Counted from the stretch's first letter, positions 44,960 to 63,832 are shown. The stretch is 64,000 nucleotides of DNA from Oscillospiraceae bacterium (GCA_015065085.1 SVQW01000007.1:991-64990), one strand, 5' to 3'. The notes: generated by a model not told the origin, from the sequence alone. Made by a program: numbers and translations.

Positions 44960-45038
44960 CAGCCCGGACAAAATACAGAGGTATAGATATCATTTACAAA
45001 CAACACTCATAAAAATTTCAGAAAATGGAGTAAAACAC

Positions 45039-47692: not shown

Positions 47693-47729
47693 AATAGGAC
47701 TTGTACTCGATTCGAGCACAAGTCCTATT
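47693..47729. terminator. Strong hairpin after the RM gene (terminator or element-end structure)
   Basis: AATAGGACTTGTACTCG-ATT-CGAGCACAAGTCCTATT: a 16-bp stem with one mismatch, and no clean T-run on either side. Confidence 0.45.
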
Positions 47730-47969
47730 GCCGTCTATTTGGTTATTTATTCCATTACTTCCAACATTATTTTTGCTTCCAGCTTACCATAAAATCCAAG
47801 TTAATCGACACCCGAAAGGTCAAACTCAGACGGATTTTCAATTATGGATATTTCAGAATAAGTGGCGCACATACCTTTTGTGTAAGAGAAATCGTTGTTC
47901 CTGTCAATGAAAAAACATACAGAGGGTGTGACTTGAAGCTTAGGGGACAAATACCCAAAGTCTCGGGTA

Positions 47970-48089
47970 TAGCCACCCATTTCCCATACTTTTTCCCATA
48001 CCTTTGAATTAAAATTCAAAATATTTTTTTGTTTTTCCTAAACTTTTAAGTGTTTGGTCGGGGGACAAATTTCAAAAAAAATATATAAT
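47970..48089 (+). promoter_or_regulatory. Promoter module copy 1, upstream of the zinc-ribbon/TPM operon
   Basis: A 36-nt block, TAGCCACCCATTTCCCATACTTTTTCCCATACCTTT (direct repeat TTCCCATAC x2), then TTTTCCTAAACTTT, then GTGTTTGGTCGGGGGACAAAT. GGGACA (48062-48067), a 16-nt spacer, then TATAAT (48084-48089). Confidence 0.6.
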
Positions 48090-48234
48090 TATACTTACAA
48101 GAACAGAAGCGATAGGATATTATTTTTGCGTTCTAAGGATAACAAGGGGCATGCAAACACTTGTATATGAACTTCACCAACGGATGCGTAAAAAACTCTG
48201 TTATTCTAACGCGTTTCCGAAGGGAGGATAGCCT

Positions 48235-48597
48235 ATGCAAAAAAAAATGGCAAAGCACAGATTGATTACCGACAGCGAAGGAAAATTACGTTATCAGTTT
48301 TTCTGCGATTTATCGGGATCGCTTGAGTATACGTCAAGCTCCATAAATGCAGATTCCGAGGAGGAACTTGAACGTGTATGGAATAAAAACGCAAAAGAGC
48401 ACTTCAATCTATGTCACAAATGTGGGATTTATGTAAGCTCTGAAATGTTTAACGCCGAGGTTTTTGAGTGTGTAGCTTGTGCTCCGTGGGAGGAGGCTCC
48501 GAAATATTGTCCTCATTGCGGACAAAAGGTTAATGGTTCGGGAAACAACTGCAGCTATTGTGAAAAGAAACTGCGTTATGAGGGGGGAGAGGTATGA
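48235..48597 (+). CDS. Small protein with two zinc-ribbon motifs
   Basis: CHKCG...CVAC and CPHCG...CSYC. RBS GGGAGG 8 nt upstream. Confidence 0.65.
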   Translation: MQKKMAKHRLITDSEGKLRYQFFCDLSGSLEYTSSSINADSEEELERVWNKNAKEHFNLCHKCGIYVSSEMFNAEVFECVACAPWEEAPKYCPHCGQKVNGSGNNCSYCEKKLRYEGGEV

Positions 48598-48601
48598 AAC
48601 T

Positions 48602-48874
48602 ATGACAGCACCTTATGAAAAAATACGTCTTGAGAATATGAAGCACTATGGCTTCGGTCCCGAGGTAATGAAAAGAATAAAGGTTTGCAAGGAATGCGGT
48701 GCAAAAGCTGATTCGGAGCTTCTCTTTTGTCCCGATTGTGACAGACCTCTTCCGACGGAAACTCTCTATACGCTGTATGTGCATAGCCATTTTGTATGTA
48801 CAAAGTGCAAAACGGTAGTATCGGCAAAATATAAATTCTGTCCACAGTGTGGTAAAAAACTTATTTTTGAATAA
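48602..48874 (+). CDS. Double zinc-ribbon protein (90 aa)
   Basis: CKECG...CPDC and CTKC...CPQCG. The start is set at the ATG at 48602 (MTAPYEK), 4 nt after the previous stop. The longer ORF-track start overlaps the upstream gene. Confidence 0.6.
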   Translation: MTAPYEKIRLENMKHYGFGPEVMKRIKVCKECGAKADSELLFCPDCDRPLPTETLYTLYVHSHFVCTKCKTVVSAKYKFCPQCGKKLIFE

Positions 48875-48923
48875 TCAGATAATAAAACAAAAACAAAAAA
48901 ATACATTTACGGAGGTATTTATT

Positions 48924-49682
48924 ATGGCAAAGAACACATGTGCAATATGCGGAGCAGAAGTTAATCTGTTTACAGGACAGCAGCTGGCGGATAAGACATA
49001 TATCTGCCGTAAGGTATGTGCAAAGAAGTGTCTTAAAATCTTCGATTTTGTTCCCGCAACTCTTGACGAGGTAAAATCACACATTGAGCAGGTTGAAAAG
49101 GGTACAAAAGTATGGAATCAGATTTTTGTTCCTTTGCAGAAAACAAAGGTCAAGGAAGAAAAGCTGAAGAGATTTGGTGCCCCCCTTTATGTGTCACCCT
49201 CAACAGGACTTATGGCACTTGTTGAAACAAGATATAAGTTCATTGTTTTCGGCAAAAGCCAGCTTGCCTGCGTTTACAGAATAGCAGATCTCGCTTCCTA
49301 TGAATATGAGGAAGAGTCGGTGAAAAATTCCGAGGGCAAGATAGAAAAGAAGGAATTTTGCCGTATGTTCTTCCACAATACGGCAGGTCTTTACAGCTTC
49401 CGCTTTGAGATAAGCAACAGCCTTGAATTTAAGTCGCTTGAAAAGTATTTTGATACTCTCTTCGGTATTCAGAAAACTCTTGGCAACTCCATAAACAACG
49501 CAAAAAAGCAGTGGGCAGCAATCAAGGATGTTGCAGGTGCGGTAAAGGCTGCGGCTTCAGGTGACGAAAATGTCGAAGAAAAAGCGGCAGCGGCGGCAGA
49601 AAGTCTCGGTACATATCTTGAGGGTGACAGAACAGAGCTTATCGCAAAGGCTGATGCGGCTCTTGCAGGTGTTCAGTATTGA
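48924..49682 (+). CDS. N-terminal zinc-ribbon protein with a central beta-rich (PH-like?) domain and an Ala-rich helical tail
   Basis: CAICG...C.KVCAKKC at the N-terminus. The start is the ATG at 48924 after GGAGGT. The domain guesses come from sequence texture only. Confidence 0.6.
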   Translation: MAKNTCAICGAEVNLFTGQQLADKTYICRKVCAKKCLKIFDFVPATLDEVKSHIEQVEKGTKVWNQIFVPLQKTKVKEEKLKRFGAPLYVSPSTGLMALVETRYKFIVFGKSQLACVYRIADLASYEYEEESVKNSEGKIEKKEFCRMFFHNTAGLYSFRFEISNSLEFKSLEKYFDTLFGIQKTLGNSINNAKKQWAAIKDVAGAVKAAASGDENVEEKAAAAAESLGTYLEGDRTELIAKADAALAGVQY

Positions 49683-51091
49683 CGGCGGTGATAACATTGA
49701 AGAAAATAATATCATTGTTGCTTGTTTTTACACTTTGTGCGATGCTGTTTGTTTCCTGCACTCAAGAGAACGATAAGCCTGATGTGAAAAACAATAACGA
49801 TGTAACAGAAACTGATGACAGTCAAGGTGACAAAACAACATCAAAACCTGATAAATCAGAAAAGGAAGACGAGTTACTTACAGAACTCAGAAAGCAGATA
49901 TCCGACAGCGGTGCAAAGCTGGGTGTTGCATATCTCGGATACTTTGTTGAAACATTTGATGACACAAAAGATTATTTTAAATATTTAGGACTGTATGAAG
50001 ACTATCCCTTTGTTGAAGAAATGGAGCTTGGTGACCTTATCGTAAACGAAAACAACGAGATGTATCTTGTTGTACCTGCCGATAGTACAGAAACAGTCAA
50101 GGTATACGACGCAGTACCTGATGAAGAAACCTATGAGCTTGAAAAGGGTGAGCTTTTAGGCGAATCGGCAAATGGAAAACCGTTCCTTCTTCTTTGCAAT
50201 GTCAGCGAAATAATACCAAATGTGATCATAAGCACAAGCACCCTTGAATACAGTCCCTGTCTTTCGGGCGAGGACGGAGAGCTTGTAGAGAATCAAGATA
50301 TTTACGATTTTTCGCCTTATGAGAAAATAAAAGAGTATTATGACATTCAGAACGGTCTTGCAGATGGAGCAGATCCCATATTCTGCGGAAGCTGGTTCGG
50401 AGAATCGGAAAACGGCGACTACGAGCTTATGTCAATGAGCCTTGAACTTTACGTAGACGGAACAGCAACCTACGTATACGGCGTTGGAAACAGCGAGCCT
50501 GTAGAGTGGTTTATGGGCGAATGGAGCTTTGATGCCGAGCGTGATATGATCATTCTTGATATGTACGGTGGACCGCCAAACGACTATGAAGATTCCGATG
50601 AATTGTTTATAGACCCGTATGAACTGAAGTGCGGTTTTAAGTGGGATATGGATTACCGTGATGACGGAACTTATCTCATTCTTACACACGAAGAGGGCGA
50701 TCCCATACTGTGGGGCAAGAACGGTGCAACATTTGAGTTTGCAGAGGCTTCCGGGCCCGAGGAAGAGGAAGATTACTCTTACCTTATCGGCTCATGGGGA
50801 ATAATCTCTGAAAAATCAGAAACATACCTTGAGTTGTTTCCCGATGGCTCGGCGCACTATTATGTAACAAGGGACGATGTGACAGAAAAAGACCTTCGCG
50901 GCTCATGGCATGCCGAAGCTCTTACATTGTACCTTACACTCGGCGAAAATGAAGCTTTGACGGGAGCTTACGGTATTATGTATGACGGTGAGCTGCTTAT
51001 TCTGTCCATTCTCGATGATTTCGCCGAACCGCTGACGGCTTTTATGGCAGAAAACGGATATGACAGCTTTATACTTTGCGGTGTAGGCTGA
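49679..51091 (+). CDS. Acidic secreted lipoprotein with repeated G-x-W lipocalin-like modules
   Basis: Signal peptide KKIISLLLVFTLCAMLFVSC (lipobox). Non-ATG start candidates lie at 49679 (TTG), 49688 (GTG) and 49697 (TTG). Repeated GSWFGE/GEWSFD/GSWGII/GSWHAE segments. Confidence 0.65.
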   Translation: MTAVITLKKIISLLLVFTLCAMLFVSCTQENDKPDVKNNNDVTETDDSQGDKTTSKPDKSEKEDELLTELRKQISDSGAKLGVAYLGYFVETFDDTKDYFKYLGLYEDYPFVEEMELGDLIVNENNEMYLVVPADSTETVKVYDAVPDEETYELEKGELLGESANGKPFLLLCNVSEIIPNVIISTSTLEYSPCLSGEDGELVENQDIYDFSPYEKIKEYYDIQNGLADGADPIFCGSWFGESENGDYELMSMSLELYVDGTATYVYGVGNSEPVEWFMGEWSFDAERDMIILDMYGGPPNDYEDSDELFIDPYELKCGFKWDMDYRDDGTYLILTHEEGDPILWGKNGATFEFAEASGPEEEEDYSYLIGSWGIISEKSETYLELFPDGSAHYYVTRDDVTEKDLRGSWHAEALTLYLTLGENEALTGAYGIMYDGELLILSILDDFAEPLTAFMAENGYDSFILCGVG

Positions 51092-51120
51092 TAATACAGT
51101 AATTTGAAAGGAGTGTTTAT

Positions 51121-52206
51121 ATGGCTACTTTACAAGAATACAAATGCCCGTGCTGTGACGGTGCGATAGCGTTTGACGCAGAATCTCAGAAAATGAAATG
51201 TCCTTTCTGCGGCAACGAATTTGAAATGGAAACCCTTGCTTCCTATGACAGTGAGCTTCAGAACGACTCGGAAAGCAACATGCAGTGGGAAACGAATGCA
51301 GGTTCCGAGTGGCAGGAAGGAGAAGCAGACGGCCTTCGTACATACCGGTGTAACTCCTGCGGAGGCGAAATTGTAGGCGATGATACGCTGGCAGCTTCAA
51401 AATGCCCCTATTGCGGAAATCAGGTTGTTATGATGGGACAGTTCTCAGGTGCTCTGAAGCCTGACTTTGTTATTCCATTTAAGCTTGATAAGAAAGCTGC
51501 GAAGGAAGCGCTCCTTAACCACTATAAAGGCAAGAGGTTCCTTCCTAAAGTTTTCAGAGACCAGAATCATATTGAAGAAATCAAGGGCGTTTACGTTCCT
51601 TTCTGGCTCTTTGATGCAGAGGCCGATGCCAACATCAGATACAGAGCAACACGTATTCGCCATTGGAGTGATTCGAGGTACGAATACACCGAAACAAGCT
51701 TTTATAATGTAACTCGTCAAGGCTCACTCGGCTTTGAAAAAGTTCCCGTTGACGGCTCGACAAAGATGGCAGATGACCTTATGGAATCAATTGAACCCTT
51801 TGACTTTTCACAGGCTGTCGATTTCCAAACAGCATATCTTGCAGGCTATATTGCTGACAAATATGACGTTGACGCCGAAACAAGTATTGAAAGAGCAAAT
51901 GAAAGAATCAAGAAGAGCACCGAAGATGCTTTTGCCTCAACAGTTGACGGTTACACTACCGTAACACCCGTAATGTCAAGTATAAATCTTGAAAACGGCA
52001 CTTCAAAGTATGCCCTTTTCCCCGTGTGGCTTCTCAACACCGATTGGAACGGTCAGAAATACACCTTTGCAATGAACGGTCAGACAGGCAAGCTTGTGGG
52101 CGATCTCCCTCTTGACAAGGGTGCATACAAGAGATGGCTTTTCGGACTTACAGGTGTGATAAGTGCAGTATGTCTCGGCATATCTTATCTGCTCTGGTTA
52201 ATTTGA
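51121..52206 (+). CDS. Two-zinc-ribbon protein with a C-terminal TM anchor (YdjG-like architecture)
   Basis: CPCCDG...CPFCG and CNSCGG...CPYCG, a soluble domain of about 230 aa, and the C-terminal helix WLFGLTGVISAVCLGISYLLWLI. Confidence 0.7.
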   Translation: MATLQEYKCPCCDGAIAFDAESQKMKCPFCGNEFEMETLASYDSELQNDSESNMQWETNAGSEWQEGEADGLRTYRCNSCGGEIVGDDTLAASKCPYCGNQVVMMGQFSGALKPDFVIPFKLDKKAAKEALLNHYKGKRFLPKVFRDQNHIEEIKGVYVPFWLFDAEADANIRYRATRIRHWSDSRYEYTETSFYNVTRQGSLGFEKVPVDGSTKMADDLMESIEPFDFSQAVDFQTAYLAGYIADKYDVDAETSIERANERIKKSTEDAFASTVDGYTTVTPVMSSINLENGTSKYALFPVWLLNTDWNGQKYTFAMNGQTGKLVGDLPLDKGAYKRWLFGLTGVISAVCLGISYLLWLI

Positions 52207-52219
52207 GGGGGTGTGAATT

Positions 52220-53017
52220 ATGAAAAACAGAATATTTACACTGCTTGTTGCAATATTGTCGGTTATAATGCTGACAGTAGGCGTTGCTGCCGAAGATGAG
52301 TATTATCGTTTGCAGGATTTAACAGAAGTACCGCTTCTTACCGAAAGCGAAAACGCTGAAATTCTTGCTCTTCTTGATGAAGTAAGCGAGAGACAAGGAA
52401 TGGATATTGCCATTCTCACGGTAGATGCTGTGGAAGAAGGTCTTACCGTTGAAGAGGATGCTACCGAATGGTATGAGTATCTCGGTTACGGCGACGACGG
52501 TGCAATGCTGTATATCAGCATGGAAGAAAGTGACTGGTATTATCTCACAAAGGGCTTCGGAATTACCGCAATGACAGATGCGGGAATAGATTACATATCC
52601 GAAAAGTTCCTTCCTGCTCTTTCCGACGGTGACTATGCAGGTGCATTCAGAGCATATATCCAGTATACCGACGAGTTTATAACACAGGCAAAAACAGGCA
52701 AACCCTACGACGTGGGAAATATGCCAAAAGAGCCCTATGACTTGCCGATGAGCCTTCTCGTTTCAGTAGGCATTGGTCTTTTGGTTTCTCTTATAATAAC
52801 AAGCATATGGAAAGGTCAGCTCAAGAGCGTTGCGTTCAAGACACAGGCGACAAGTTACTTGAAGCCCGGAAGCCTTAGCATCGCAAACTCCCGTGACTTC
52901 TTCCTATACAGAACAGTTGACCGCAGAGAAAAAGAAAATGAATCATCATCCGGTGGTTCTTCAACACACAAGTCATCTTCCGGTGGAACATATGGCGGAA
53001 AAGGCGGAAAATTCTAA
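52220..53017 (+). CDS. TPM-domain membrane protein (YgcG/YdjH-like) with a Gly/Ser-rich tail
   Basis: Signal/TM helix, TPM-like region (LLTESENAEILALLDEVSERQGMDIAILTV), a second TM helix, and the tail SSSGGSSTHKSSSGGTYGGKGGKF. Confidence 0.7.
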   Translation: MKNRIFTLLVAILSVIMLTVGVAAEDEYYRLQDLTEVPLLTESENAEILALLDEVSERQGMDIAILTVDAVEEGLTVEEDATEWYEYLGYGDDGAMLYISMEESDWYYLTKGFGITAMTDAGIDYISEKFLPALSDGDYAGAFRAYIQYTDEFITQAKTGKPYDVGNMPKEPYDLPMSLLVSVGIGLLVSLIITSIWKGQLKSVAFKTQATSYLKPGSLSIANSRDFFLYRTVDRREKENESSSGGSSTHKSSSGGTYGGKGGKF

Positions 53018-53032
53018 AAAAAGGAGTTTGCC

Positions 53033-53428
53033 ATGAGTATTGTAGGAAATTGGAAAGTTAAAAAGATTATACACTTCGAAGGAGATGAGCCAAAGCTTAT
53101 CACCATTGATGAGTTTAATGCTATTCCGGAAGAACAGAAAGACGAAGAACAGGCTCAAATGGCAAGCTTGGTGCTTGATATTACCGAGGACGGAAAACTC
53201 ACAATGATGATTCCCATTCCGGCTCAAGCAATTGAAGAAGCAAGAGCAGAAGGAGCTGAGGTTACAGACGACGGCTTTGTAATTGCAGACAAATTCGAGT
53301 GGCTTAAAAGAGATGACAAGTATTTCTGCCATAACGAAAGCATGGGCACAGATCCAATGCCTCTTGAGTTCGATGATGACGGCTGTCTTGAATTTATGGG
53401 TGGAATGCTGATTTTTGAAAAAATTTAA
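53033..53428 (+). CDS. Small cytoplasmic hypothetical protein (lipocalin-like GNWKV start)
   Basis: A 131-aa ORF with RBS AAGGAG and no signal peptide. Confidence 0.55.
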   Translation: MSIVGNWKVKKIIHFEGDEPKLITIDEFNAIPEEQKDEEQAQMASLVLDITEDGKLTMMIPIPAQAIEEARAEGAEVTDDGFVIADKFEWLKRDDKYFCHNESMGTDPMPLEFDDDGCLEFMGGMLIFEKI

Positions 53429-53502
53429 CCAATTATCGAAGATATAGCCGATTGTTTCCGTCTGATTATAGTTAAAATATAAAATTAAAAGGAGAAGCTG
53501 TT

Positions 53503-54765
53503 ATGAAAAAGTTTTTGGTATTAATGTTAGCAGCACTTATGTGTATTTTCCTTGCCGCTTGCGGTGGCGATAAAACTCCCACACAGAATCCGGAGAATAA
53601 TAACACGGAAGTAAATACACCCGAAACACCCGATGAACCGGAAGTCCCCGCAGAAAAGAGCTTTGAAGAATTAAAGGCTGAATTTATGTCAAAAACAGCA
53701 GAAGACCTTGTAAAGGAATATTTTGCAGATGCGGCAAATCCCACAGCACAGGAATTTGCAAAGCTTTATGAAAATTATGCATTCCTTGATACAAAGGATG
53801 ACTATGAATTTGACAACGATAATACTATCGTCGCAGCTGTAAAGCTTATAAAGGACAGCGGTGCAAATACTGTAAATGCAGCTAATCAGGAAGTAATAAG
53901 CTATCTTATCGGCAGTAAGTATGACCTTGCAAGAGCTTATGCTTACAGACAGCAGTCTACCAACAATATTAGCTCGGATGCCGAAATCTATGCACCTCTT
54001 CTCGAAAAGGCTCTTTCCGAAACAGAACCCAAGGTGGTTTATGCAGTGCTTAAGGGACTTCCTCAGTCCTACGGTAACAATGATGAATTCTGGGCATTTG
54101 CACTTCCTTTCGCAAAGAGCGAAGATGCAAACCTAAGAAGAGCAGTTACCACTGCATTTGACAGATTTGATATTGAAAGTAAGGATGCGGCACTTGAAGC
54201 AGCGATCGCACTTATGAACGATGCGGATGATACAGTAAAGGGAAGTGCTTTAAGATACGCAGGAGAGATCGGCGACGACAGACTTGTGGAAAACTACAAA
54301 ACGGTTCTTATGGATGAATCTCTTGCAAAGAAGTTCCACGGCAATGCTCTTCTCGGACTTACCGATATCTGGTATGCATATCCTACGCATGATAATACCT
54401 CCGAAGCAGCTTACAAGCTCACAATGGAATATTACACAATGAACACAACAAACCCCGACATTCCTTCATGGAACGGTCTTACAGGCATCAAAATGAAGGG
54501 TTCGCAGGCAAAATATGATGAATGGAGAGCAAGTGCCGACTACTTTGATGAAAGAGAAGTTGTTAATGCAATGCTTGCTATCGTTGCTGACGCAGAGGCT
54601 TCAAAGAATGTAAAGTCAAGTGCCATCGATAACATAGCTTCCTGGGGTACACTTGAGGATGCACAGGCTGCAAAGGCAACAGTTGAAGCATTCCCCGACG
54701 ACAATAAGGACAAAGCAAGCCTTATCACCAAGTGCGACAGCGCAATCACCAAGCTTTCCAAGTAA
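53503..54765 (+). CDS. Lipoprotein with HEAT/armadillo-like helical repeats
   Basis: Lipobox FLAAC. Repeated NLRRAV...DADDTVKGSALRYAGEIGD-type helical repeat segments. Confidence 0.6.
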   Translation: MKKFLVLMLAALMCIFLAACGGDKTPTQNPENNNTEVNTPETPDEPEVPAEKSFEELKAEFMSKTAEDLVKEYFADAANPTAQEFAKLYENYAFLDTKDDYEFDNDNTIVAAVKLIKDSGANTVNAANQEVISYLIGSKYDLARAYAYRQQSTNNISSDAEIYAPLLEKALSETEPKVVYAVLKGLPQSYGNNDEFWAFALPFAKSEDANLRRAVTTAFDRFDIESKDAALEAAIALMNDADDTVKGSALRYAGEIGDDRLVENYKTVLMDESLAKKFHGNALLGLTDIWYAYPTHDNTSEAAYKLTMEYYTMNTTNPDIPSWNGLTGIKMKGSQAKYDEWRASADYFDEREVVNAMLAIVADAEASKNVKSSAIDNIASWGTLEDAQAAKATVEAFPDDNKDKASLITKCDSAITKLSK

Positions 54766-55530
54766 ATGAAAAAAGCGATGAAGATAATAGTTATAGTCGC
54801 CGCAGCTGCCGTAGGTGTTGCAGCGTTATTCGGAGCACTGACTTCCTCAGGCGGTGAAAAATACAGAATGGAATACGACAGTAAGGATCTGTACCGCGGA
54901 GCAAAGGACAGCTACAAGGCAGGGCAAAAGGTAACGCTCCACTTTCCGTACGTTGCAACCGACACAAGCTATAGATTTTACCTCAGCGGAAAGGCAATAG
55001 ATGCGACCTATTCCGATTTCGGCGGATATAAGTTAGAGTTTGTTATGCCTCCGTATGATGCGAAGCTTGAATGTGTGACAAAAAATGACATGGTGTACAC
55101 TCCTCCTGAAGAAGGCATAAAAGAAACACTTCTTTATGAGTATTACCGTGCAACTTCAGCCGTTGCTGACGGTCACCCCGAAACGTATACCATAGCTCTC
55201 TACTATATATCCGAAACAGACGCCGAGGGCAATCAGGAGGACAGAACAGAGCTTCGTGTAACAGAGGTAAAATCCGACGGAACAAAAACAGAAAATGTCT
55301 ATGATGCAAGGCTCTACGGCTCATATGAGTGTGACCTTATTGCCGACGAATATCATATGCACGGCTGGAACACTATGAGAAATACAATCTCCGAGGATGG
55401 CTTGCTCGTTGCAGTAAAATTCAAAACCGGCACAGGATATATCAGAGTATCCAATGAGTGTATGCCCGAAAACGGCAGGGAAGGCATGGGAAAGATCCGT
55501 AAGATTCTCGAAGGTTATATGACAGAATAA
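54766..55530 (+). CDS. N-terminally membrane-anchored hypothetical protein
   Basis: The ATG abuts the previous TAA. It has one N-terminal TM helix (IIVIVAAAAVGVAALFGAL). Confidence 0.55.
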   Translation: MKKAMKIIVIVAAAAVGVAALFGALTSSGGEKYRMEYDSKDLYRGAKDSYKAGQKVTLHFPYVATDTSYRFYLSGKAIDATYSDFGGYKLEFVMPPYDAKLECVTKNDMVYTPPEEGIKETLLYEYYRATSAVADGHPETYTIALYYISETDAEGNQEDRTELRVTEVKSDGTKTENVYDARLYGSYECDLIADEYHMHGWNTMRNTISEDGLLVAVKFKTGTGYIRVSNECMPENGREGMGKIRKILEGYMTE

Positions 55531-55587: not shown

Positions 55588-56625
55588 TCAATTTTCCGAT
55601 ACTTCGGTTTCGTTTGAGAGATTGGCATAGTAAAGAAGCTGTTTTCTTGATGAAACACCGAGCTTCTGATAAATATTCTTGTTGTGGAATTTAAGGGTGT
55701 TTTCCTTTATGCCTACAGCTTCTGCCGTTTCCGCAGTGCTTTTTCCCGAAACGTAGAGGTCGAATATTTTTCTCTCGGTTACCGTAAGAAGCGAAATACC
55801 GTCGCAGAAACGCTTATACTCGTCTATCGGCTCTTCGGTTGTTTCTTCTGTTTCTGTATTTGCGGTCGTAGTTTCCGCTGCTTCTGTTTCTTTTACAGCT
55901 TGAGGAACAGGTATCTGTTTCGTTTTGAGCGAAGCCTCCGATTCTGTATTCGCCGTATGCTCCTGTACCTGAAGCATTATGTACAGCATAAGTAAAAACA
56001 GCTCGGTTATTATATAAGTGATGGAAAGAAACTCAAATTCAATGTCAATGATCTGTTCGATTCCCCATACGGCGATGTTGCCGAGTGTAACAGACGCAAG
56101 AAGCGTTGCATGGGAAGCCGAGGTTATTCTTCTCTTGATCATTGCATATATGATAATTCCTATCATTATTGCAAAATACAAAAGCAGATACAGCGCATAG
56201 ACTCTGTGAAGCGGACCGTATTCCTTGACAAGCGTTGTAAGACCGTCGGTTATGTCTATTGTTACCGATTTGTAATAGCAATTAAGGTAGCCCGGTGTTG
56301 CCGCAATAAGAAAGACGATGCAGGTTATGGGTAAAAGGGTTGCCGTTGCAATCTTTCTATATCCTGTCTTGCACACGTTCATTATTGTCATAAGCATACA
56401 TAGCGGCAGAAATGCCGAACCGAGGTATGCTATTCTGTTGGCAAGAAGAGCTTCGCCGAGCGTTTTTGAAATAGACAGACATAAATATCCGCCGTTTATT
56501 ATGAATACCGAAAAATACAGAAGTAACATCCATATTTCCTTTTTCTTCATTGCACAGCAGTATCCTATCGCAATAATAAGCGACAATACGGTGGTTGCCG
56601 CATAAATGATTGATATACTTGACAT
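55588..56625 (-). CDS. Seven-TM membrane sensor fused to a C-terminal LuxR/GerE-type HTH
   Basis: Seven hydrophobic segments, a T/E-rich linker, then the HTH (LTVTERKIFDLYVSGKSTAETAEAVGIKENTLKFHNKNIYQKLGVSSRKQL). The start is the ATG at 56625 after AAAGGTGAAACA. The ORF-track start overlaps the XRE gene. Confidence 0.75.
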   Translation of the reverse strand: MSSISIIYAATTVLSLIIAIGYCCAMKKKEIWMLLLYFSVFIINGGYLCLSISKTLGEALLANRIAYLGSAFLPLCMLMTIMNVCKTGYRKIATATLLPITCIVFLIAATPGYLNCYYKSVTIDITDGLTTLVKEYGPLHRVYALYLLLYFAIMIGIIIYAMIKRRITSASHATLLASVTLGNIAVWGIEQIIDIEFEFLSITYIITELFLLMLYIMLQVQEHTANTESEASLKTKQIPVPQAVKETEAAETTTANTETEETTEEPIDEYKRFCDGISLLTVTERKIFDLYVSGKSTAETAEAVGIKENTLKFHNKNIYQKLGVSSRKQLLYYANLSNETEVSEN

Positions 56626-56635
56626 TGTTTCACCT

Positions 56636-56857
56636 TTAGTTTTCTCCGTTAAGTACCCATTTTTCGTCATAGCCGAATTCAAGGGCAATAAGCTTTGCCA
56701 GGACAGGAGATATTTTTTTGTTGGCATTCTCACGGGAACGCCCATTTGTCGTGAGAATATATATATAGTTTTCGGTAACACCGAGACGGGCTGCAAATTC
56801 ACGCTTTGTGATTTTTTGTTCGCTTATTATTTTGTTCAGTCGGTCGGCAAGTGTCAT
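56636..56857 (-). CDS. XRE-family helix-turn-helix protein (73 aa)
   Basis: HTH region LNKIISEQKITKREFAARLGVTENYIYIL. Its start shares the TAATG junction with the upstream LuxR gene's stop. Confidence 0.75.
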   Translation of the reverse strand: MTLADRLNKIISEQKITKREFAARLGVTENYIYILTTNGRSRENANKKISPVLAKLIALEFGYDEKWVLNGEN

Positions 56858-58473
56858 TATATTTTACCTCCGTTATCCTGAGTATAAAGTGCGGCGTACC
56901 TTAACATTTGCTTTCTTGAGGAAACACCAAGCTTTTCGTAAATGTTGCCATTGTGAAATTTAAGTGTACTTTCCTTAATGCCCGTTATTTCAATAATTTC
57001 TTTAGCTGTTTTCCCTGCAAGATACATTTCAAAAATATTACGTTCAGATTTGGTCAGTGTCTTAATGCCTATGGCAAAATTTTCGTAATCCTCGGGATTT
57101 ATCTCGTTTTTGCGAGAATATGACAATTTTTCAATTTCGCCCTGTACCCTTGCAAGCTCGGTTTCGGCTTTTTCCTTTTCCTCCGAAAGCTCCTCGTAGG
57201 CGATTTCGTATTCCTTGTCCTTATCCGAAAGAAAACCAAAAAGGTCGCTGATTTCCAAAAATCTTGAATCGGATTGGGAATGTTCAAACCTTCTTATTTG
57301 TTCAAGGCCTTCCATTATCGGCTTCATAAAACGTTTGCTTAAGATACGGCATAGCGATATGGCGAAAGAGGAAAGAAGTATTAAGAATACAACAATCTGT
57401 ACAGCATTTGTGGAGACAGCCTTGTCAAAATCCTTTTTCGGCATCATGACAAGAAGCACATTTTTGCCCTCTGTGTCATACTCGGGTGAGCCTGCAAGCC
57501 CTATATATATTTCGTTTTCTGTTTCGAACACCAAAAGTCCGTCATCAGCCTTACTGATTTTTATATTACCTGCAGGAGGAAGAAAATATCCGTCCTCGGT
57601 TCCGCAAATCATCGCATTGTCGGCACTGATGTTGTCTCTTGATGTCAGCCACAGACACATTAGATGCTCAAGAATTGTAGACTGTGCGTGCTTCATTTTG
57701 AAGGCGTGCTCGCTTATCTCAAAGCCGCATACTCCAACAACATTACCGCCGGTTCCGAGAATCGGTACCGTCAGCAAAGTCGCATTTTCGCTTGTTCCGG
57801 GAATAGTTACAATATCTGTGAAATTGTATGCTGCTTCAAGGGGAACATCCGGAGCAATTTTAAGTATCTCTTCGTAATCAGGAAACAACCTCGTATCAAA
57901 TTCAAGCTGCCATTTTCTGTGAGGCATAACCGATGCTTCTTTTCCTATAGCGGCATCACCTCTGAAAAGAAGAAGTGTTTCGTCGGATAAGTTCTGTGAG
58001 CCTCGCTGAACATAAAGACCGGATCTTGAATGTCCATCCTTGTTTGAATTGCTGTTTACGGTAGTATCCAGCATAATGAAAATGCCCGAGCTTTCCGATT
58101 TGAGAATTTCATCTTTTAAAAGATCAAGAAGCAATCTTTGTATATCTGCAATATGCTCGGGAGAGTCATCAAGATCTTCGAAATCCAGTCCATTTGTTCT
58201 CAGATAGTGTGACAGTATTCTTGAGGCTTCTGATGAAAGGTTTGCAGCTCTCATTGCAAGCTCCTCGTGATGTGAGGTGATTTCCTTTTCAAAAACCTCC
58301 ATCTGAAGCTTTAAAGTATTTGCAAAAGTATCAGAGGGCTTTGCAAAGGTTCCGAGCATAATCATTCCAAAGGCGATTACAACGAGTATTACGACAGTCA
58401 GAATCATCATATATACGAACAGACTGTCTCTCATTTTCAGCTTCCCTTTGGAAAGAAACCTGGAAAAACGCAT
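56857..58473 (-). CDS. Membrane-tethered one-component regulator: TM, extracytoplasmic sensor domain of about 310 aa, TM, coiled coil, LuxR/GerE HTH
   Basis: Two TM segments (about residues 20-42 and 355-377). The C-terminal HTH is LTKSERNIFEMYLAGKTAKEIIEITGIKESTLKFHNGNIYEKLGVSSRKQM. RBS GGAGGAG. Confidence 0.75.
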   Translation of the reverse strand: MRFSRFLSKGKLKMRDSLFVYMMILTVVILVVIAFGMIMLGTFAKPSDTFANTLKLQMEVFEKEITSHHEELAMRAANLSSEASRILSHYLRTNGLDFEDLDDSPEHIADIQRLLLDLLKDEILKSESSGIFIMLDTTVNSNSNKDGHSRSGLYVQRGSQNLSDETLLLFRGDAAIGKEASVMPHRKWQLEFDTRLFPDYEEILKIAPDVPLEAAYNFTDIVTIPGTSENATLLTVPILGTGGNVVGVCGFEISEHAFKMKHAQSTILEHLMCLWLTSRDNISADNAMICGTEDGYFLPPAGNIKISKADDGLLVFETENEIYIGLAGSPEYDTEGKNVLLVMMPKKDFDKAVSTNAVQIVVFLILLSSFAISLCRILSKRFMKPIMEGLEQIRRFEHSQSDSRFLEISDLFGFLSDKDKEYEIAYEELSEEKEKAETELARVQGEIEKLSYSRKNEINPEDYENFAIGIKTLTKSERNIFEMYLAGKTAKEIIEITGIKESTLKFHNGNIYEKLGVSSRKQMLRYAALYTQDNGGKI

Positions 58474-58499: not shown

Positions 58500-59813
58500 T
58501 TAATTTACCGAAGTAAACATTTTCCATATCGCTTCGGCAAGGGCTTCGGAATTTTCATATAAATCGGGATTACGCTGTCCGATACGGACATCACCGTAAA
58601 AATCATACACCTTAGTGTAATAATCGGGGAAATTGGGCTCGGTTACCGCAGTGCAATTCTCTGCTGTATGTCCGAGTGCTTCATAAAGACTTTTGTATCC
58701 CTCATCCTTGAATTCGTAAGCTTTAATCTTATTAAAGGCGTCCTTTTTTATCGGCATATATCCTGTTTCCGAAACGAAAGCGAGATTTCTGTCGCTCTCT
58801 GTGAGCCATTTCACAAAAACTGATGCAGCTTCAGCCTTTTGAGTGGTGGTTTTGCAGCAAGCAAGTCCTACACCTGCCTGGGTAACAAGATTCTTGCCGT
58901 TTCCTGCCTGCGGAAGAGGAAGTACCTTAAGATTCATAGGCTCGTTTGTATTGTCGGGGTATGTGATTGTATCATTATAGTAAAGAATTGAAGCGCTTGA
59001 GCCGATACCGCAGGCAACCTCGCCCGTCATGACCTGGGTGTTTGAATAAAGATCGGATACCATAATGTGTCCCTTGGATATGGATGAAGCAAACTTCATA
59101 AAGCAGTCCTTAAAGGTTTCATTTGAGTAGTCGTACCAGCCGTCCTTATAAAAATCGTCAGCGCCTTGCGACATTGCGTAAAGCTCGATACAGCGCAAAG
59201 GATAGTCTACCGCACAAAAAGCCTTGCCGCCCGACCATTCATGATATTTTTCCGCCGCTTCAAAGAAGCCGTCCCATGTGGAAAGAGTTTCGTATGTAAC
59301 ACCGGTGTCAGCAGAAAAACGCCCGAATACACCGTCTGCCATAAAGAGAAGATGTGTGGATTTTGATACCGGGAATACCGCAAGGCTGTCGTCAACCATT
59401 CCGTCCGCCAGAAACTCCGGTACGATCTGTGAAAGCTCTTCCTGCGTGAACCGCTCGTTCCAGTTTACAAGGTTATCCTTGCCGAGAGCCTCTGCGTTGT
59501 TATTGTGACAGAAGAACAAATCGGGCATTTCCGGAGCACCGGGATGACCGGTCTGTGCATCAAGTAATTCCGGTCCTACTTCGGATGCGTTTGTCATAGA
59601 AGTAACATTTATGATTATTCCTTTTTCGCGACCTACTGTCTGATTGAACTCATTTACAAGCAGGTTCATTGGTGAGCTTGCCTGCTCGCCGTATACATGC
59701 CACAAGGTAAGAGTTACAGGATCATTAGGTGACAGCTCTGACTTTTCACCGCAACCTGTTATGCATCCGAGCATTGTCAAAGAAAGCATTAAAACTGCAA
59801 GTATTTTCTTCAT
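58500..59813 (-). CDS. Family-1 extracellular solute-binding lipoprotein (sugar-type ABC SBP) with no adjacent permease or ATPase genes
   Basis: Lipobox LGCITGC and an SBP_bac_1-like sequence throughout. The start is the ATG at 59813 after GAAGGAGGAAAA. The ORF-track GTG at 59840 lies in the shared promoter module. Confidence 0.8.
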   Translation of the reverse strand: MKKILAVLMLSLTMLGCITGCGEKSELSPNDPVTLTLWHVYGEQASSPMNLLVNEFNQTVGREKGIIINVTSMTNASEVGPELLDAQTGHPGAPEMPDLFFCHNNNAEALGKDNLVNWNERFTQEELSQIVPEFLADGMVDDSLAVFPVSKSTHLLFMADGVFGRFSADTGVTYETLSTWDGFFEAAEKYHEWSGGKAFCAVDYPLRCIELYAMSQGADDFYKDGWYDYSNETFKDCFMKFASSISKGHIMVSDLYSNTQVMTGEVACGIGSSASILYYNDTITYPDNTNEPMNLKVLPLPQAGNGKNLVTQAGVGLACCKTTTQKAEAASVFVKWLTESDRNLAFVSETGYMPIKKDAFNKIKAYEFKDEGYKSLYEALGHTAENCTAVTEPNFPDYYTKVYDFYGDVRIGQRNPDLYENSEALAEAIWKMFTSVN

Positions 59814-59833
59814 TTTTCCTCCTTCGGGCAGTG

Positions 59834-59953
59834 TAGCCACCCATTTCCCATACTTTTTCCCATACCTTTTTTCAAAAAAACAAAATTATTTTTATATTTT
59901 CCTAAACTTTCTGGTGTTTAGTCGGGGGACAAATCCGAGAAAATATATATAAT
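59834..59953 (+). promoter_or_regulatory. Promoter module copy 2, upstream of the SLH-protein operon and abutting the divergent SBP gene
   Basis: The same 36-nt block is identical to 47970-48005. It also has TTTTCCTAAACTTT and GTGTTTAGTCGGGGGACAAAT. GGGACA (59926-59931), a 16-nt spacer, then TATAAT (59948-59953). The internal spacings equal those of copy 1. Confidence 0.6.
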
Positions 59954-60182
59954 TACAATTGAAAGAATGCATAAGGGAGGGAACACATCTTGATTTCAGA
60001 TAGTAAGAGCCGAGAGGGGCTTGCATGATATGTAATATCATACAAAGGAATATCACTTTGGCGCTTCTGCTATTTCTTAGTATTATATCACATTATTTTG
60101 ATTTAGTCAAGACAAGCGCTACGCAAACATTTGTAAAACTTTTTTGTGAAAAAGATAAAATAAACGAAAAGGAGATTTCATT

Positions 60183-63100
60183 ATGAAAAAAACAAGCAAA
60201 ATACTTGCGGTTATTATCGCAGTAATTTCAATCACCTGCCTTATGGCGATATCGGCAAGTGCGGCGATTAGCTGTTCATCCTATTATGTTTTTATGAATG
60301 AAACCGAAAACTATAAGGTCGGACAGATTGCCAATATTCCGGCATCGCGTTACACGGCAGATCTTGCATCAAGCGATTATGGCGTACAGAATACTTACAC
60401 ATATTCTTTTAGCGATTCGTCAATGGTTAAAGTAAGTGGTGAAAAGGTTACCTTTGTAAAAGAAGGCACGCTGACTCTTACTATCAAGCACAACCAAAAG
60501 TTTGAAAGAACCGGCAAAACTTCATCACATACCGATACAATAAAAATAAATGTATCAACGGAGCCTATTCAGACAACCAACATCAAGCTTGATTCCGGTG
60601 CGTTCTCAGGCGGCAAGGAATTTCCTGCATTTACAGTTGTAAATGTTGAAAACTGCTATGTTGAGGAAGCAACCTTCTACAAGGAAATGGCTGACTACTA
60701 CGTTGGCGACAAGCTTCCCAGCTATCGTGCAGGAACAACTATTGATTTAGTCCGTATCACGCTTAAGCCAAAGGAAGGATATTTCTTCGGTTGGGGCGGT
60801 ACAAACGACGGCAAGAGCTATGAAAGCAATGTTTACACGATTGAGTATAAGGGCAAAAAGTATAAACCCTATGTAGTACACGATCAATCAAAGAGTGAAA
60901 TGGAAGTATATGTCTCGGTTACCTTCGAAGAAGGTGAAATCTACGCAACAACCTTCAAGGACCTTGACGCACCTTATCACTGCGGTCCGCTCGACAAGAC
61001 CGTTACGACAAATAGCGATGTTGAGCTCGTAAGCGTAAAATATACAATGTTCAACAAAGAGCTTACAGAGTTTAAAAAAGGTGACACGGTTGGAATTACC
61101 GTAAGAGTAAAGTCTAAGGATCCGAAAAACACCTTTAATGCAAACGGCTACGCATACTGGATGGAACAGAAGATGAACAGCGTAAACACAAAGCTCATCA
61201 GTTCCACAGAAGCGGAATACACCTTCACATACAAGGTTGACGCGATTGACAGTCAAACAATCAAATGGGCTGATTTCACAATGCCCGGCGTATTTGCAGG
61301 CGAACCTCTTCCGACAAACGCGTTTTCCGCAACAGACGGTATCGTAGTAAAATCAGTTACATGGACACCGAATGATGCAAAAGCCGATGCAAACAAGGAA
61401 TATACAGTAAAAATTGAGTTTGGCAAGAAAGATGAATTCGTATATGCCGATGATTTTGCAGAACAGGGCGTTGTAAGCATAAACGGAGAAAGAGCAAAAT
61501 TTGTGAATGAAACATCATCTGGCGGCGGCGTAAAAGGAAAGTTTGAAACAAAAAAGTATTATGCAGAAGCAACTTTCAAGCCTACGGTTGTGGTAAACGC
61601 AGGAACAACAGGCACGACAACCGAAACCGTAACCGGAACTGTAAACGGTACGTATGTATCCGGAACAGTCGTATCCGGTACAACAACCCCCGAATTCAGA
61701 ATCGACATAACTTACAATAACAAAGAGGTCACAGCCGAAAAGGGCGAAAAGGTGATCCTTGACTTCACACACAATATGGATCTTATGCTTTGCAGCAACA
61801 TCAATTATCAGTGGTACAAGGCAGAGGGACCCGTTTACGGCACAGGCGAAATGGTTGAGGGCGGTCACGAGAAGCAGCTTGAAGCTCACACCTACGAGGT
61901 GGGCACAGATTACTATTACTGCATTATGACCTGCAAATTTGATGATTCAGAGTACACCTCCGATTTCTCGGAGTCTCCCATTGTAAAGGTAACCGTAACC
62001 GAAAGTACGGCAAAGGACTTCAAGGTATTTCCCGTGGGCGAAACGGAAATTGTAACAAAGGACGGCGACTTCACTCTCAAGCTCGGCGTTGAAGGACAGG
62101 GTAAGCAGGATGTAACTTATGTATGGCGTCCCTGCAACGAAGACGGAAGCTTTGATGCAGAGGATTACAAATATTACGTGATAGGCGAAACCGATACTCT
62201 TAACTATTACATAAATGTCAACGAGGTAAACGTTCCCCACTACTTCCTCGGTGCGGCAAGCATCTACGGCGGCGACGGCAGCGTAATATTCAAGGTTACC
62301 TACGTTCCCGAATATGAAGAAGACGATGAAGAATATCCCGAAGAAAAGTTTAACCTTGTTGCAGACGGCAAACAGGAAATCATAATTTACTCATGGGAAG
62401 AAAAGGTTACGCTTAAGGCAAAGGTAACAGGAACAGAGAAGCTCGCAGACTTCCAGTGGTTCAGATGCGACAAGGAAGGAAAAACAATCGGAGCACCGTT
62501 AAGCATGGGTGATAGCGTCACAGTAGGTCCTATCCCCAAGGAAGATATGATGACACCCTATTATTACAGATGTACTGCAATGATAGGTAATACGGCAAAG
62601 TCTATTATCTTTGAAGTGCTCCTTGCTCCCAAAGGTGTTGAAGAAGAATATGTATTCCCGTTCACAGATGTAAAGGAGACAGATTGGTTCTACGATGCAG
62701 TTGCAGGTGCAAACCAGATGGGACTTATTAACGGTAAGTCTGCTACAATATATGCACCCGAGGATAATATGACATACGCCGAAGCAGTAAAGCTTGCAGT
62801 GTGTATGAACATTCTTTACAACGGAGGAAATCCTGCAGAAGATATAAAGAACGGTACAGATGTATGGTTCAGCACATATATGACGTATGCACTCGACAAC
62901 GGCATCATCGATGAGGACCTTACACCTAAGGCAGACGAAAATATAACGAGAAAAGAATACGCTTATATTTTCTCAAAGGCACTTCCCGCAGAAGCGTTTG
63001 CGGAAAAGAACGAGATTCCTTCAGGCTCTATCCCCGATGTAAAAGAAGAAAAGCTTGCGCAGGATAAGGCAATTTACACCTTTTACAGAGCAGGTATCCT

Positions 63101-63230
63101 TGCAGGCGTTGATGTAAAAGGAACGTTCAAGCCTTCCGACAACATTAAGAGAAGCGAGGTTGCCGCAATTCTTATTCGTATGATGGATCCAAGTGCAAGA
63201 GTTTCAGCTCCCAAGGAGCTTGGCAAATAA
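60183..63230 (+). CDS. Large secreted cell-surface protein with Ig-like repeats and three C-terminal SLH domains
   Basis: Signal peptide, repetitive beta-rich body and a T/G/V-rich linker. The C-terminal SLH-like segments are FTDVKETDWFYDAVAGANQMGLINGKS..., ITRKEYAYIFSKAL... and FKPSDNIKRSEVAAILIRM. Confidence 0.8.
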   Translation: MKKTSKILAVIIAVISITCLMAISASAAISCSSYYVFMNETENYKVGQIANIPASRYTADLASSDYGVQNTYTYSFSDSSMVKVSGEKVTFVKEGTLTLTIKHNQKFERTGKTSSHTDTIKINVSTEPIQTTNIKLDSGAFSGGKEFPAFTVVNVENCYVEEATFYKEMADYYVGDKLPSYRAGTTIDLVRITLKPKEGYFFGWGGTNDGKSYESNVYTIEYKGKKYKPYVVHDQSKSEMEVYVSVTFEEGEIYATTFKDLDAPYHCGPLDKTVTTNSDVELVSVKYTMFNKELTEFKKGDTVGITVRVKSKDPKNTFNANGYAYWMEQKMNSVNTKLISSTEAEYTFTYKVDAIDSQTIKWADFTMPGVFAGEPLPTNAFSATDGIVVKSVTWTPNDAKADANKEYTVKIEFGKKDEFVYADDFAEQGVVSINGERAKFVNETSSGGGVKGKFETKKYYAEATFKPTVVVNAGTTGTTTETVTGTVNGTYVSGTVVSGTTTPEFRIDITYNNKEVTAEKGEKVILDFTHNMDLMLCSNINYQWYKAEGPVYGTGEMVEGGHEKQLEAHTYEVGTDYYYCIMTCKFDDSEYTSDFSESPIVKVTVTESTAKDFKVFPVGETEIVTKDGDFTLKLGVEGQGKQDVTYVWRPCNEDGSFDAEDYKYYVIGETDTLNYYINVNEVNVPHYFLGAASIYGGDGSVIFKVTYVPEYEEDDEEYPEEKFNLVADGKQEIIIYSWEEKVTLKAKVTGTEKLADFQWFRCDKEGKTIGAPLSMGDSVTVGPIPKEDMMTPYYYRCTAMIGNTAKSIIFEVLLAPKGVEEEYVFPFTDVKETDWFYDAVAGANQMGLINGKSATIYAPEDNMTYAEAVKLAVCMNILYNGGNPAEDIKNGTDVWFSTYMTYALDNGIIDEDLTPKADENITRKEYAYIFSKALPAEAFAEKNEIPSGSIPDVKEEKLAQDKAIYTFYRAGILAGVDVKGTFKPSDNIKRSEVAAILIRMMDPSARVSAPKELGK

Positions 63231-63253
63231 ATCTGTTTAAGGAGGAAAAATTT

Positions 63254-63832
63254 ATGTCAATTTTTGATAAGCTGTTTAACAAGGCTGCAAATGCCGCAAC
63301 AGGTGCTGTAAAAAGTGCCGTAAGTAACGCAGGAAACAAAAAGGAAGAGTTTACATTTGCAAAGCTCCCCGAAAGTCTTGACGAGCTTAAGGCTCTTCCG
63401 GAGGCAAAGCTTGATGATCCTTACAAGACAGCCGCGCTAACAGTAGTTGCACTTTGCGTATACGCGGCAGACAAGAACATCGGTATCGAGATGCTCAACT
63501 TCCTTAAAGGTCCGAGACCTCTTTCCAATTACGAAATCTCGTTCATTGACGACAGACTTCGTGACAAAAAGACCTACGTTCCTTTCTCTTATTTCAAAGG
63601 TGCAACACCGGAAAATGACTATACACCCGATGAGCCCTATTCTATTACTGTAGAAAGCAATCCCTACTCGGATGCAAATCAGGGTTACAAGAAGCTGATA
63701 ATCAAAAGCAGTGGTGCTGATACACCCAGAGAAGTACAGCTCAGAATGAAGGGCGACGGTCAGTGGCTTTTGTGGGAGCAGTTCTTGCTTCCCGACATCC
63801 GCAAGCCAAAATCCGCAGACCCCTGGGCATAA
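63254..63832 (+). CDS. Hypothetical protein (192 aa)
   Basis: RBS AAGGAGGAAAAATTT precedes the ATG. It is co-oriented 23 nt after the SLH gene. No family recognised. Confidence 0.6.
   Translation: MSIFDKLFNKAANAATGAVKSAVSNAGNKKEEFTFAKLPESLDELKALPEAKLDDPYKTAALTVVALCVYAADKNIGIEMLNFLKGPRPLSNYEISFIDDRLRDKKTYVPFSYFKGATPENDYTPDEPYSITVESNPYSDANQGYKKLIIKSSGADTPREVQLRMKGDGQWLLWEQFLLPDIRKPKSADPWA

Follow-up and report, generated by a model that had tools for sequence, protein, structure and literature searches.

A duplicated promoter module with tandem heptads beside genes for membrane-bound LuxR-type regulators in Oscillospiraceae: a probable regulator-controlled promoter-operator

A stretch of 64,000 nucleotides from an Oscillospiraceae bacterium (GCA_015065085.1, SVQW01000007.1:991-64990), in the following called the window, contains two copies of a promoter-like module. 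Copy 1 precedes an operon for zinc-ribbon, DUF4428 and TPM-domain proteins (operon A), copy 2 an operon for an SLH-domain surface protein and a DUF6935 protein, and a tight operon of four genes on the minus strand lies between the copies (solute-binding protein SBP, LuxR538, Xre-like protein and 7TM-LuxR). The two LuxR-type proteins of this operon each combine transmembrane (TM) segments with a helix-turn-helix (HTH) domain of the GerE type. The comparison with related loci points to the module as a promoter-operator that is probably under the control of these regulators. The features of the locus are as follows.

47967..48103, plus strand: module copy 1 (heptad array, promoter and first predicted transcribed bases), a 137-nt repeat with orthologs in L016/L084, L087, L088 and L089
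47972..48001, plus strand: distal heptads of copy 1, GCCACCC (47972-47978), CCCATAC (47983-47989) and CCCATAC (47995-48001)
48006..48036, plus strand: A/T-rich spacer from the distal array to the proximal heptad, 54% identity between paralogs
48037..48043, plus strand: degenerate heptad CCTAAAC next to the promoter (proximal heptad), located at about -59 and forming the core of the TTTTCCTAAACTTT box
48053..48068, plus strand: extended -35 box TTTGGTCGGGGGACAA with the hexamer GGGACA at 48062-48067
48084..48089, plus strand: -10 hexamer TATAAT from the promoter scan, predicted start at ~48096
48235..55530, plus strand: operon A, encoding Zn-ribbon proteins, DUF4428, a TPM-domain protein, a HEAT-repeat protein and unknowns (Pfam)
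55588..56670, minus strand: 7TM-LuxR, HisKA_7TM plus C-terminal GerE HTH (Pfam, hydropathy)
56636..56857, minus strand: Xre-like HTH protein of 73 aa, third regulator gene of the regulator operon (open reading frame, ORF)
56857..58473, minus strand: LuxR538, two TM segments, cytoplasmic coiled region and GerE HTH (Pfam, hydropathy)
58500..59813, minus strand: solute-binding lipoprotein SBP_bac_8, first gene of the regulator operon (Pfam; signal peptide plus Cys; ribosome-binding site)
59831..59967, plus strand: module copy 2, with orthologs in L084/L086, L087, L088 and L089
59836-59842, 59847-59853, 59859-59865 and 59901-59907, plus strand: heptads of copy 2
59917-59932, plus strand: -35 box of copy 2 (GGGACA 59926-59931), followed by the -10 hexamer at 59948-59953 and a predicted start at ~59960
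60082..60110, minus strand: predicted facing promoter of the SBP/regulator operon, TTGACT, 17 nt, TGaTATAAT (promoter scan 11/12 plus TG)
60183..63832, plus strand: copy-2 operon, SLH-domain surface protein of 1015 aa, then DUF6935 (Pfam, synteny)

Two groups of relatives were compared with the window. Group 1 comprises five genomes (the window, L016/L084, L087, L088 and L089) with ten module copies. Group 2 consists of seven loci whose 7TM-LuxR homologs share 46-50% identity (L091, L093, L095, L097, L099, L122 and L123). Five homologs in this similarity range, P0048, P0069, P0106, P0107 and P0109, are labelled Ruminococcus sp. or Clostridiales by the source, and L095 and L123 encode P0107 and P0109.

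The two copies form an ungapped direct repeat of 137 nt (47967-48103 versus 59831-59967, 81% identical, offset +11864), which is the largest direct repeat within the window. The original prediction had already recognised this repeat, but with a length of about 120 bp it underestimated the extent of the similarity. When the window is read directly, positions 47970-48005 and 59834-59869 carry the same 36-mer, TAGCCACCCATTTCCCATACTTTTTCCCATACCTTT, which in both copies is followed after exactly 56 nt by GGGACA and after another 16 nt by TATAAT, with the GTGTTT(G/A)GTCGGGGGACAAAT and TTTTCCTAAACTTT boxes lying between the 36-mer and the promoter hexamers. The 36-nt identity, the internal spacing and the shared boxes had all been described correctly, and so had a third GGGGACAAAT at 47943-47952, 17 nt left of copy 1. 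The latter is probably irrelevant to the module, because its flank is conserved in no relative; it may be a rearrangement relic. The exact sequence TTCCCATAC occurs four times in the window, every time within the two copies. Furthermore, pairs of heptads with at most one mismatch and a distance of 10-13 nt were detected in the window only at copies 1 and 2, compared with a mean of 0.64 in shuffled sequences.

The inner structure of the array differs from the initial description, in which two repeats at a 12-nt phase were proposed. These repeats exist, but the layouts of the group-2 loci led us to re-read the 36-mer as three heptads, and the comparison with the same distant relatives turned the TTTTCCTAAAC box into a degenerate fourth one. 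The distal heptads of copy 1 are spaced by 11 and 12 nt, extend from about -124 to -95 relative to the predicted start site and are proposed as binding sites for a GerE-type HTH. A lux-box-like palindrome of 20 bp is not present in the module, whose units are direct repeats at 11-12 nt. Moreover, the module has no terminal inverted repeats, and a weak dyad (CTAAAC-N8-GTTTAG) is found in copy 2 only and is not conserved.

Regarding the promoter, GGGACA-16-TATAAT reached 10/12 in the promoter scan in both copies. The hexamer GGGACA matches TTGACA at 4/6 positions with a spacing of 16 nt (17 nt in relatives); GACA is kept, whereas a conserved G-run replaces the TT, and the group-1 promoter has no TG extension. 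In the ten group-1 copies the extended -35 sequence GTCGGGGGACAA is invariant, with TATAAT 15-16 nt further on. The -10 hexamer TATAAT is likewise invariant in these copies, and the seven distant relatives show TATAAT, TACAAT or TAAAAT at this place. The start region TTGCAAGA or CTTACAAGA is conserved 3' of the -10 hexamer. The best-supported interpretation is a promoter of the housekeeping-sigma type with a perfect TATAAT and a sub-optimal, G-rich -35 GTCGGGGGACA. If transcription starts 7 nt past the -10 hexamer, the leaders of the two operons would be about 139 and 223 nt long instead of the ~145 and ~230 nt given before. Consensus sequences of other sigma factors were compared with the module by eye: for sigma-54 (TGGCTAC, minus strand), sigma-I (CCCCC, minus strand) and sigma-E/K (CATAC) the partner element is missing or not conserved. 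The sequence GCAAACAYTTGTA, which is common to both window leaders, is not kept in the copy-1 orthologs and was dismissed as well.

Both module copies occur at orthologous positions in four further Oscillospiraceae genomes, and the contigs L084-L090, in which 7TM-LuxR shows 69-86% identity, carry the whole locus with both copies at the same positions. The synteny of operon A is kept in L084, L087, L088 and L089. In L088 (1160-1650) the genes for SBP, the Xre-like protein and the SLH protein are gone except for a recognisable remnant of the SBP start, the two LuxR genes and the two modules have been kept, and copy 2 would drive DUF6935 directly. The identity between the paralogous copies within a genome is unevenly distributed. 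It amounts to 91.5% in the 40-nt heptad block (91% among all ten copies), 86% in the TTTTCCTAAACTTT box, 95% in the TTTNGTCGGGGGACAA box at -35 and 100% in TATAAT, compared with 53-60% in the spacers and 27-46% in the flanks and leaders. This pattern points to purifying selection on the boxes, not on the spacers, and hence to a duplication that is older than these lineages, with the boxes held by selection. In the other genomes the paralogs of the 36-mer block differ at one to three positions, and the perfect 36-nt identity in the window is probably partly luck. The left border of copy 1 is sharp as well. Its left flank is different in each genome (spoIVA, trkA, a glycosyltransferase (GT2) gene, tRNA genes or the mobile islet of the window), conservation begins abruptly at GGT(A/G)TAGCC, and the nucleotide homology of the window to a related metagenome-assembled genome (MAG) begins exactly at 47966. 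Thus, the common promoter of the original prediction stands, on comparative evidence, as a conserved and constrained promoter region shared by two operons, but with a revised anatomy.

The number of module copies was assessed on the window plus about 170 kb of related loci (together about 233 kb) and by one exact-pattern genome scan. No further copy was found in the ~233 kb. A profile of the group-1 module (nhmmer) detected only copies 1 and 2 in the window and only the expected sites in the relatives, and it reached three group-2 regions with E = 6e-8 to 4e-6. A regular expression for tandem heptads, applied to both strands of the 233 kb, gave 18 matches, all of them in regulatory regions and in one orientation, compared with one match in 129 kb of control DNA. 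The scan of 185,579 GTDB-representative species genomes with the pattern TTCCCATACN3TTCCCATAC returned 83 stretches with one true homolog, the Oscillospiraceae MAG L016, which is orthologous to copy 1; nearly all other matches were coding Gly/Met-rich repeats or chance. Many dispersed copies had been named as an observation that would speak against a regulatory module, and what we found are two copies per locus at fixed positions. A metagenome scan with GTCGGGGGACAA-N14-17-TATAAT produced 22 matches, none with heptads or any protein of the locus, which we take as chance hits in a collection that evidently does not contain these organisms. Searches of Rfam, PADLOC, plasmids and phages gave nothing relevant for the module or operon A.

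The seven group-2 loci are built in a simpler way, with a lone regulator gene divergent from an operon that encodes DUF4428, DUF6935, SLH, dockerin or other large proteins. The same layout is found in 7/7 of their intergenic regions (~350 nt). Two or three tandem heptads of the same orientation, CCCACAC or CCCACCC, are placed 10-12 nt apart and are followed, usually after a further heptad at -62, by a G-rich -35 (GTGTGGGGACA, GGGTGGGGACA or GGGTGGCGACA), TATAAT at a distance of 17 nt (18 nt in L099; 16-18 nt when given as a range) and the conserved TTGCAAGA start region. The array of L123, CCCACCC-11-CCCACAC-12-CCCACAC, corresponds to the layout GCCACCC-11-CCCATAC-12-CCCATAC in the window. The proximal degenerate heptad of the window is the positional counterpart of a perfect CCCACAC at -62 in L093, L095, L097 and L099. 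The length of the A/T-rich spacer (48006..48036) is fixed in all group-1 copies and is about 10 or about 30 nt shorter in the distant relatives. The distal array is located at -101 in group 1, at -91 in L093, L095 and L097 and at about -71 (-72/-71/-70) in L091, L122 and L123. The array is thus shifted in ~10-nt steps and the proximal heptad stays constant at -59 to -62, as expected for contacts that depend on the face of the helix. Furthermore, the G-run at -35 reads as an inverted heptad (GTGTGGG or GGGTGGG) in group 2 with at least 6/7 positions and in group 1 with 5/7, and the regulator may also sit at -35.

Apart from the module, the leaders of the group-2 target operons (L093 5662-5860, L095, L097, L099, L122 and L091; minus strand of the loci) have three hairpins in common, GGAGGGTA..TACCCT, TTCACAC..GTGTGAA and a covarying stem with a CGCCAAC loop, which are enclosed by a GGG/CCC helix. 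Compensatory changes occur in 9/24 predicted pairs among the six sequences, Rfam gave no match for these hairpins, and a short upstream ORF is possible after AAGGAGGG-N8-TTG. This leader may represent an undescribed cis-regulatory RNA, which is only partly recognisable in the window leaders.

Across the family, the one partner that always accompanies the heptad array is 7TM-LuxR, whose gene is adjacent to the module in all 12 distinct loci. Its recognition helix, ENTLK(F/Y)HNKNIYxKLGVSSR, is conserved family-wide in parallel with the heptad. The variant with F is combined with CCCATAC and the variant with Y with CCCACAC, although only two clades contribute to this correlation. As predicted, the two LuxR-type regulators of the window have near-identical recognition helices (ENTLKFHNKNIYQKLGV vs ESTLKFHNGNIYEKLGV). 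The closest solved relative of the GerE HTH is B. subtilis GerE (1fse), and the Pfam E-value for the GerE domain is 1e-13. Hydropathy analysis of 7TM-LuxR showed 6-7 hydrophobic segments; its start codon is probably either the ATG at 56625 (345 aa) or that at 56670 (360 aa), and more than 2,900 homologs were found in Oscillospiraceae and Ruminococcus. LuxR538 contains an extracytoplasmic domain of ~300 aa between its two TM segments, which has no Pfam or PDB sequence match. The neighbouring SBP is an orphan, no ABC permease being encoded nearby, and its own PDB sequence search gave no match either. The combination of the extracytoplasmic domain of LuxR538 with the adjacent orphan SBP suggests an SBP-assisted membrane sensor. 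The Xre-like gene was called with a weak HTH_19 match in L084 and L087 and is absent from L088 and group 2.

At copy 2 the situation is complicated by a facing promoter on the minus strand (60082..60110), near-consensus in sequence, which the original prediction had not mentioned. It is conserved in 12/12 divergent regions and absent from every copy-1 region. A minus-strand SBP promoter inside the module was rejected since there is no room for it: as had been stated, only 20 nt lie between the left edge of copy 2 and the ATG at 59813 (minus strand) with which the SBP gene begins. For this reason the facing promoter should serve the SBP/regulator operon. From its predicted start at ~60075, a leader of ~260 nt would cross the whole module copy 2, which makes the module also part of the regulator mRNA leader. 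The predicted facing and target transcripts overlap by 72-192 nt across the family. Interference or roadblock feedback at copy 2 is therefore a possibility and perhaps even likely. Copy 1 lacks both a divergent gene and a facing promoter and keeps all boxes, which argues that the boxes serve the rightward promoter.

Considering all these observations together, we regard it as probable that the module represents a regulator-controlled promoter-operator, whose heptads are bound by the local membrane LuxR-type regulators and which co-regulates both operons by positive control. The heptads would be the operator for the GerE-type HTH of 7TM-LuxR and LuxR538, which are encoded between the copies. 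A regulator bound to the heptads on one helix face would recruit or stabilise RNA polymerase at the weak -35. Consequently, the Zn-ribbon/DUF4428/TPM and SLH/DUF6935 operons would be switched together upon a membrane-sensed signal, and the co-encoded solute-binding lipoprotein may join in sensing. Positive control is favoured by the weakness of the -35, which has neither TT nor TG and a 16-nt spacer, by the helical phasing and by the fact that the best sites are the distal ones. In evolutionary terms, copy 1 would be an old duplication of an ancestral region that is retained as copy 2. A region of this ancestral type is followed in the distant relatives by one operon with DUF4428, DUF6935 and surface-protein genes.

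Several points weigh against this interpretation. The sequences themselves show how the module is built and conserved, that it accompanies the regulator family and how many copies the ~233 kb contain, whereas its start sites, binder, regulatory sign and signal are predictions. The link to the regulators is based on guilt by proximity, and the seven distant loci are homologous, i.e. they do not represent independent trials. LuxR/GerE-family proteins more often bind inverted repeats, and the module contains no palindrome of the 20-bp lux-box type. The size of the regulon is bounded only on the 64 kb, the about 170 kb of related loci and the one exact-pattern scan. The remaining objections concern the sign of regulation. 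With a perfect -10 and the GACA kept, basal activity could be substantial, and repression would fit equally; moreover, the inverted heptad over the -35 in the relatives would take a position that is also typical of repressors. The -35 box of group 1 fits this inverted heptad at 5/7 positions only.

Hence, negative control with the same protein-DNA pairing has to be considered, in which the regulators would bind the G-rich -35 and loop to the heptad array until a membrane signal relieves the repression. In the seven distant relatives the inverted heptad, with its at least 6/7 matching positions, indeed abuts or overlaps the -35. The perfect TATAAT, the retained GACA and the A/T-rich upstream DNA would suit an intrinsically active promoter, and distal and proximal sites at integral helical turns are a hallmark of repression loops, too. 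Nevertheless, a -35 without the two T's, the 16-nt spacer and the lack of TG do not let one expect a strong constitutive promoter in group 1. Furthermore, the invariant G-run upstream of the -35 does not resemble an UP element, and the group-1 -35 box makes a poor inverted heptad. Altogether, repression appears unlikely to us, albeit a serious alternative to positive control.

A more far-reaching version of the regulator-controlled promoter-operator combines several of the elements mentioned above. Here, the module would be the operator of an uncharacterised 7TM-LuxR family, on which membrane-bound regulators occupy the head-to-tail heptads plus the inverted -35 heptad and tether the locus, and the facing promoters would establish an interference on/off switch, in which the regulator activates its target and roadblocks its own mRNA. 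As a complete package this scenario is quite improbable in our judgement. If it were true, tethering would put the locus at the membrane, where the envelope and surface products insert.

Very unlikely is a different binder of the heptads, for example the Xre-like 73-aa protein or a global regulator, with the LuxR-type proteins acting elsewhere. Such a binder is suggested by the presence of the Xre-like HTH gene inside the regulator operon and by the direct repeats at 11-12 nt, which are not the classical site type of the LuxR family. However, L088 and all seven distant loci have kept the heptads without the Xre-like gene, 7TM-LuxR is the only gene that is always found with the heptad array, and the conservation of its recognition helix parallels that of the heptad.

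An RNA-level element in the 5' leader of the SBP/regulator mRNA, e.g. a binding platform or an antisense target, is scarcely credible. This idea draws on the facing promoter in 12/12 divergent regions, whose transcript would include the reverse complement of the module, but it is largely refuted by copy 1, which keeps all boxes without a facing promoter or leftward gene. In addition, the predicted folding of both strands is in both copies no better than that of shuffled sequences (z = -0.55 to +0.75), Rfam gave no match for the module at the gathering threshold (otherwise noise with E about 0.9), and the conserved blocks coincide with the -35/-10 geometry.

Finally, a selfish or dispersed repeat similar to a miniature inverted-repeat transposable element, a recombination relic or an attachment (att) site without any regulatory role can practically be discarded, because the serine recombinase, AbiE pair and methyltransferase directly left of copy 1 and the break of synteny with the relatives exactly at the left edge of the module are outweighed by two copies per locus in the same orientation at the same operons in five genomes, the same copy 1 in relatives without the islet, the lack of terminal inverted repeats and of plasmid or phage matches, the single true homolog in 185,579 species genomes at an orthologous site, and a box-versus-spacer conservation that is not that of recent transposition.

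If the module is indeed a regulator-controlled promoter-operator, it can be compared with known systems. The multi-site promoters of NarL/FixJ-LuxR regulators, such as the BvgA-dependent fha and ptx promoters or the NarL heptamers, use the same GerE-type DNA-binding class. They likewise consist of 7-nt units in several copies, with a strong distal array and weaker proximal sites up to a non-consensus -35. Unlike the NarL/FixJ proteins, the regulators at our locus have no receiver or autoinducer domain and are integral membrane proteins with seven or two TM segments. In addition, the heptads are direct repeats at 11-12 nt and not arranged as 7-2-7 or inverted, and their sequence CCCAYAC differs from TACYYMT or TTTCCTA. 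As it lacks a dyad, the module does not belong to the lux-box systems either. The B. subtilis GerE binding consensus is RWWTRGGY--YY. Read on the opposite strand, the heptad (GTATGGG) agrees with RWWTRGG, whereas the rest of the consensus does not fit, which makes this similarity a lead only. Moreover, GerE of B. subtilis is a soluble protein of 74 aa acting at sigma-K promoters, unlike the membrane regulators discussed here.

With respect to the topology, the closest parallel are the transmembrane transcription regulators (TTRs) such as ToxR/TcpP and CadC, a class that has been reviewed (PMC10269533). TTRs are one-component regulators that remain in the membrane while binding DNA, as proposed here. 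They use direct repeats upstream of their targets, act on genes for envelope proteins and can have an extracytoplasmic partner, for which the SBP lipoprotein may be the counterpart. 7TM-LuxR and LuxR538 both carry TM segments and a DNA-binding domain on one polypeptide, the feature that defines this class. In ToxR-type proteins an N-terminal winged helix is combined with a single TM segment, whereas here a C-terminal GerE HTH follows seven or two TM segments. The arrangement at copy 2 also recalls face-to-face promoters like prgQ/prgX of pCF10 or pR/pL of coliphage 186, in which regulator and target promoters face each other. As the transcripts of such pairs overlap, interference or antisense effects are possible at copy 2 as well. 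Unlike in these systems, nothing in the sequence points to bistability or to regulation by antisense RNA, a facing promoter is absent from copy 1, and the module lies upstream of the overlap and not within it.

No member of the 7TM-LuxR family appears to have been characterised so far, and our literature search found no paper that mentions the 7TM-LuxR architecture or these DUFs in a regulatory context. Our analysis provides a concrete predicted operator (CCCAYAC heptads with defined spacing) and a predicted target set for this large family of membrane LuxR-type regulators, which occur abundantly in Oscillospiraceae and Ruminococcus from the rumen and gut. The module would link SLH/dockerin proteins and Zn-ribbon/DUF4428/TPM/DUF6935 genes of unknown function into one envelope-related response. 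Moreover, the paralogous pair represents a clean natural footprint with frozen boxes and free spacers, which can guide mutagenesis, and the conserved pair of promoters facing each other hints at a feedback design. General concepts of bacterial gene regulation are not changed by these findings; they rather add a regulatory prediction for a regulator family without prior study.

Some further observations were made in the surroundings of the module. Directly left of copy 1, a mobile-looking defence islet (window 40791-47603) encodes a large serine recombinase with Resolvase, Recombinase, Zn_ribbon_recom and DUF4368 domains, the toxin-antitoxin pair AbiEi/AbiEii and an 854-aa N6-adenine methyltransferase whose tail is a specificity domain. 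We considered the module as an att site of this serine recombinase, which was ruled out as no matching second repeat exists at the far side of the islet. About 90 nt past the methyltransferase stop codon, a near-perfect palindrome with 15-nt arms, AGGACTTGTACTCGA-T-TCGAGCACAAGTCCT (window 47696-47726), could be a terminator or a recombinase site; it has no second copy in the window.

In the related MAG, copy 1 is preceded by a spoIVA ORF (L016 4277-5524; L084 19512-20759) that stops at 415 aa, behind the middle domain. As SpoIVA of B. subtilis has about 492 aa, this ORF apparently lacks the C-terminal domain; a terminator-like hairpin comes after it. We dropped the idea that the module is the end of an element inserted into spoIVA, since no part of spoIVA is found in the window and each genome has another left flank at copy 1. 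Farther upstream, at window 26782-27072, two inverted arms of 43 nt, 81% complementary and 205 nt apart, each contain the palindrome AACGYGGGTTTRTTAAACCCACGT and are unrelated to the module.

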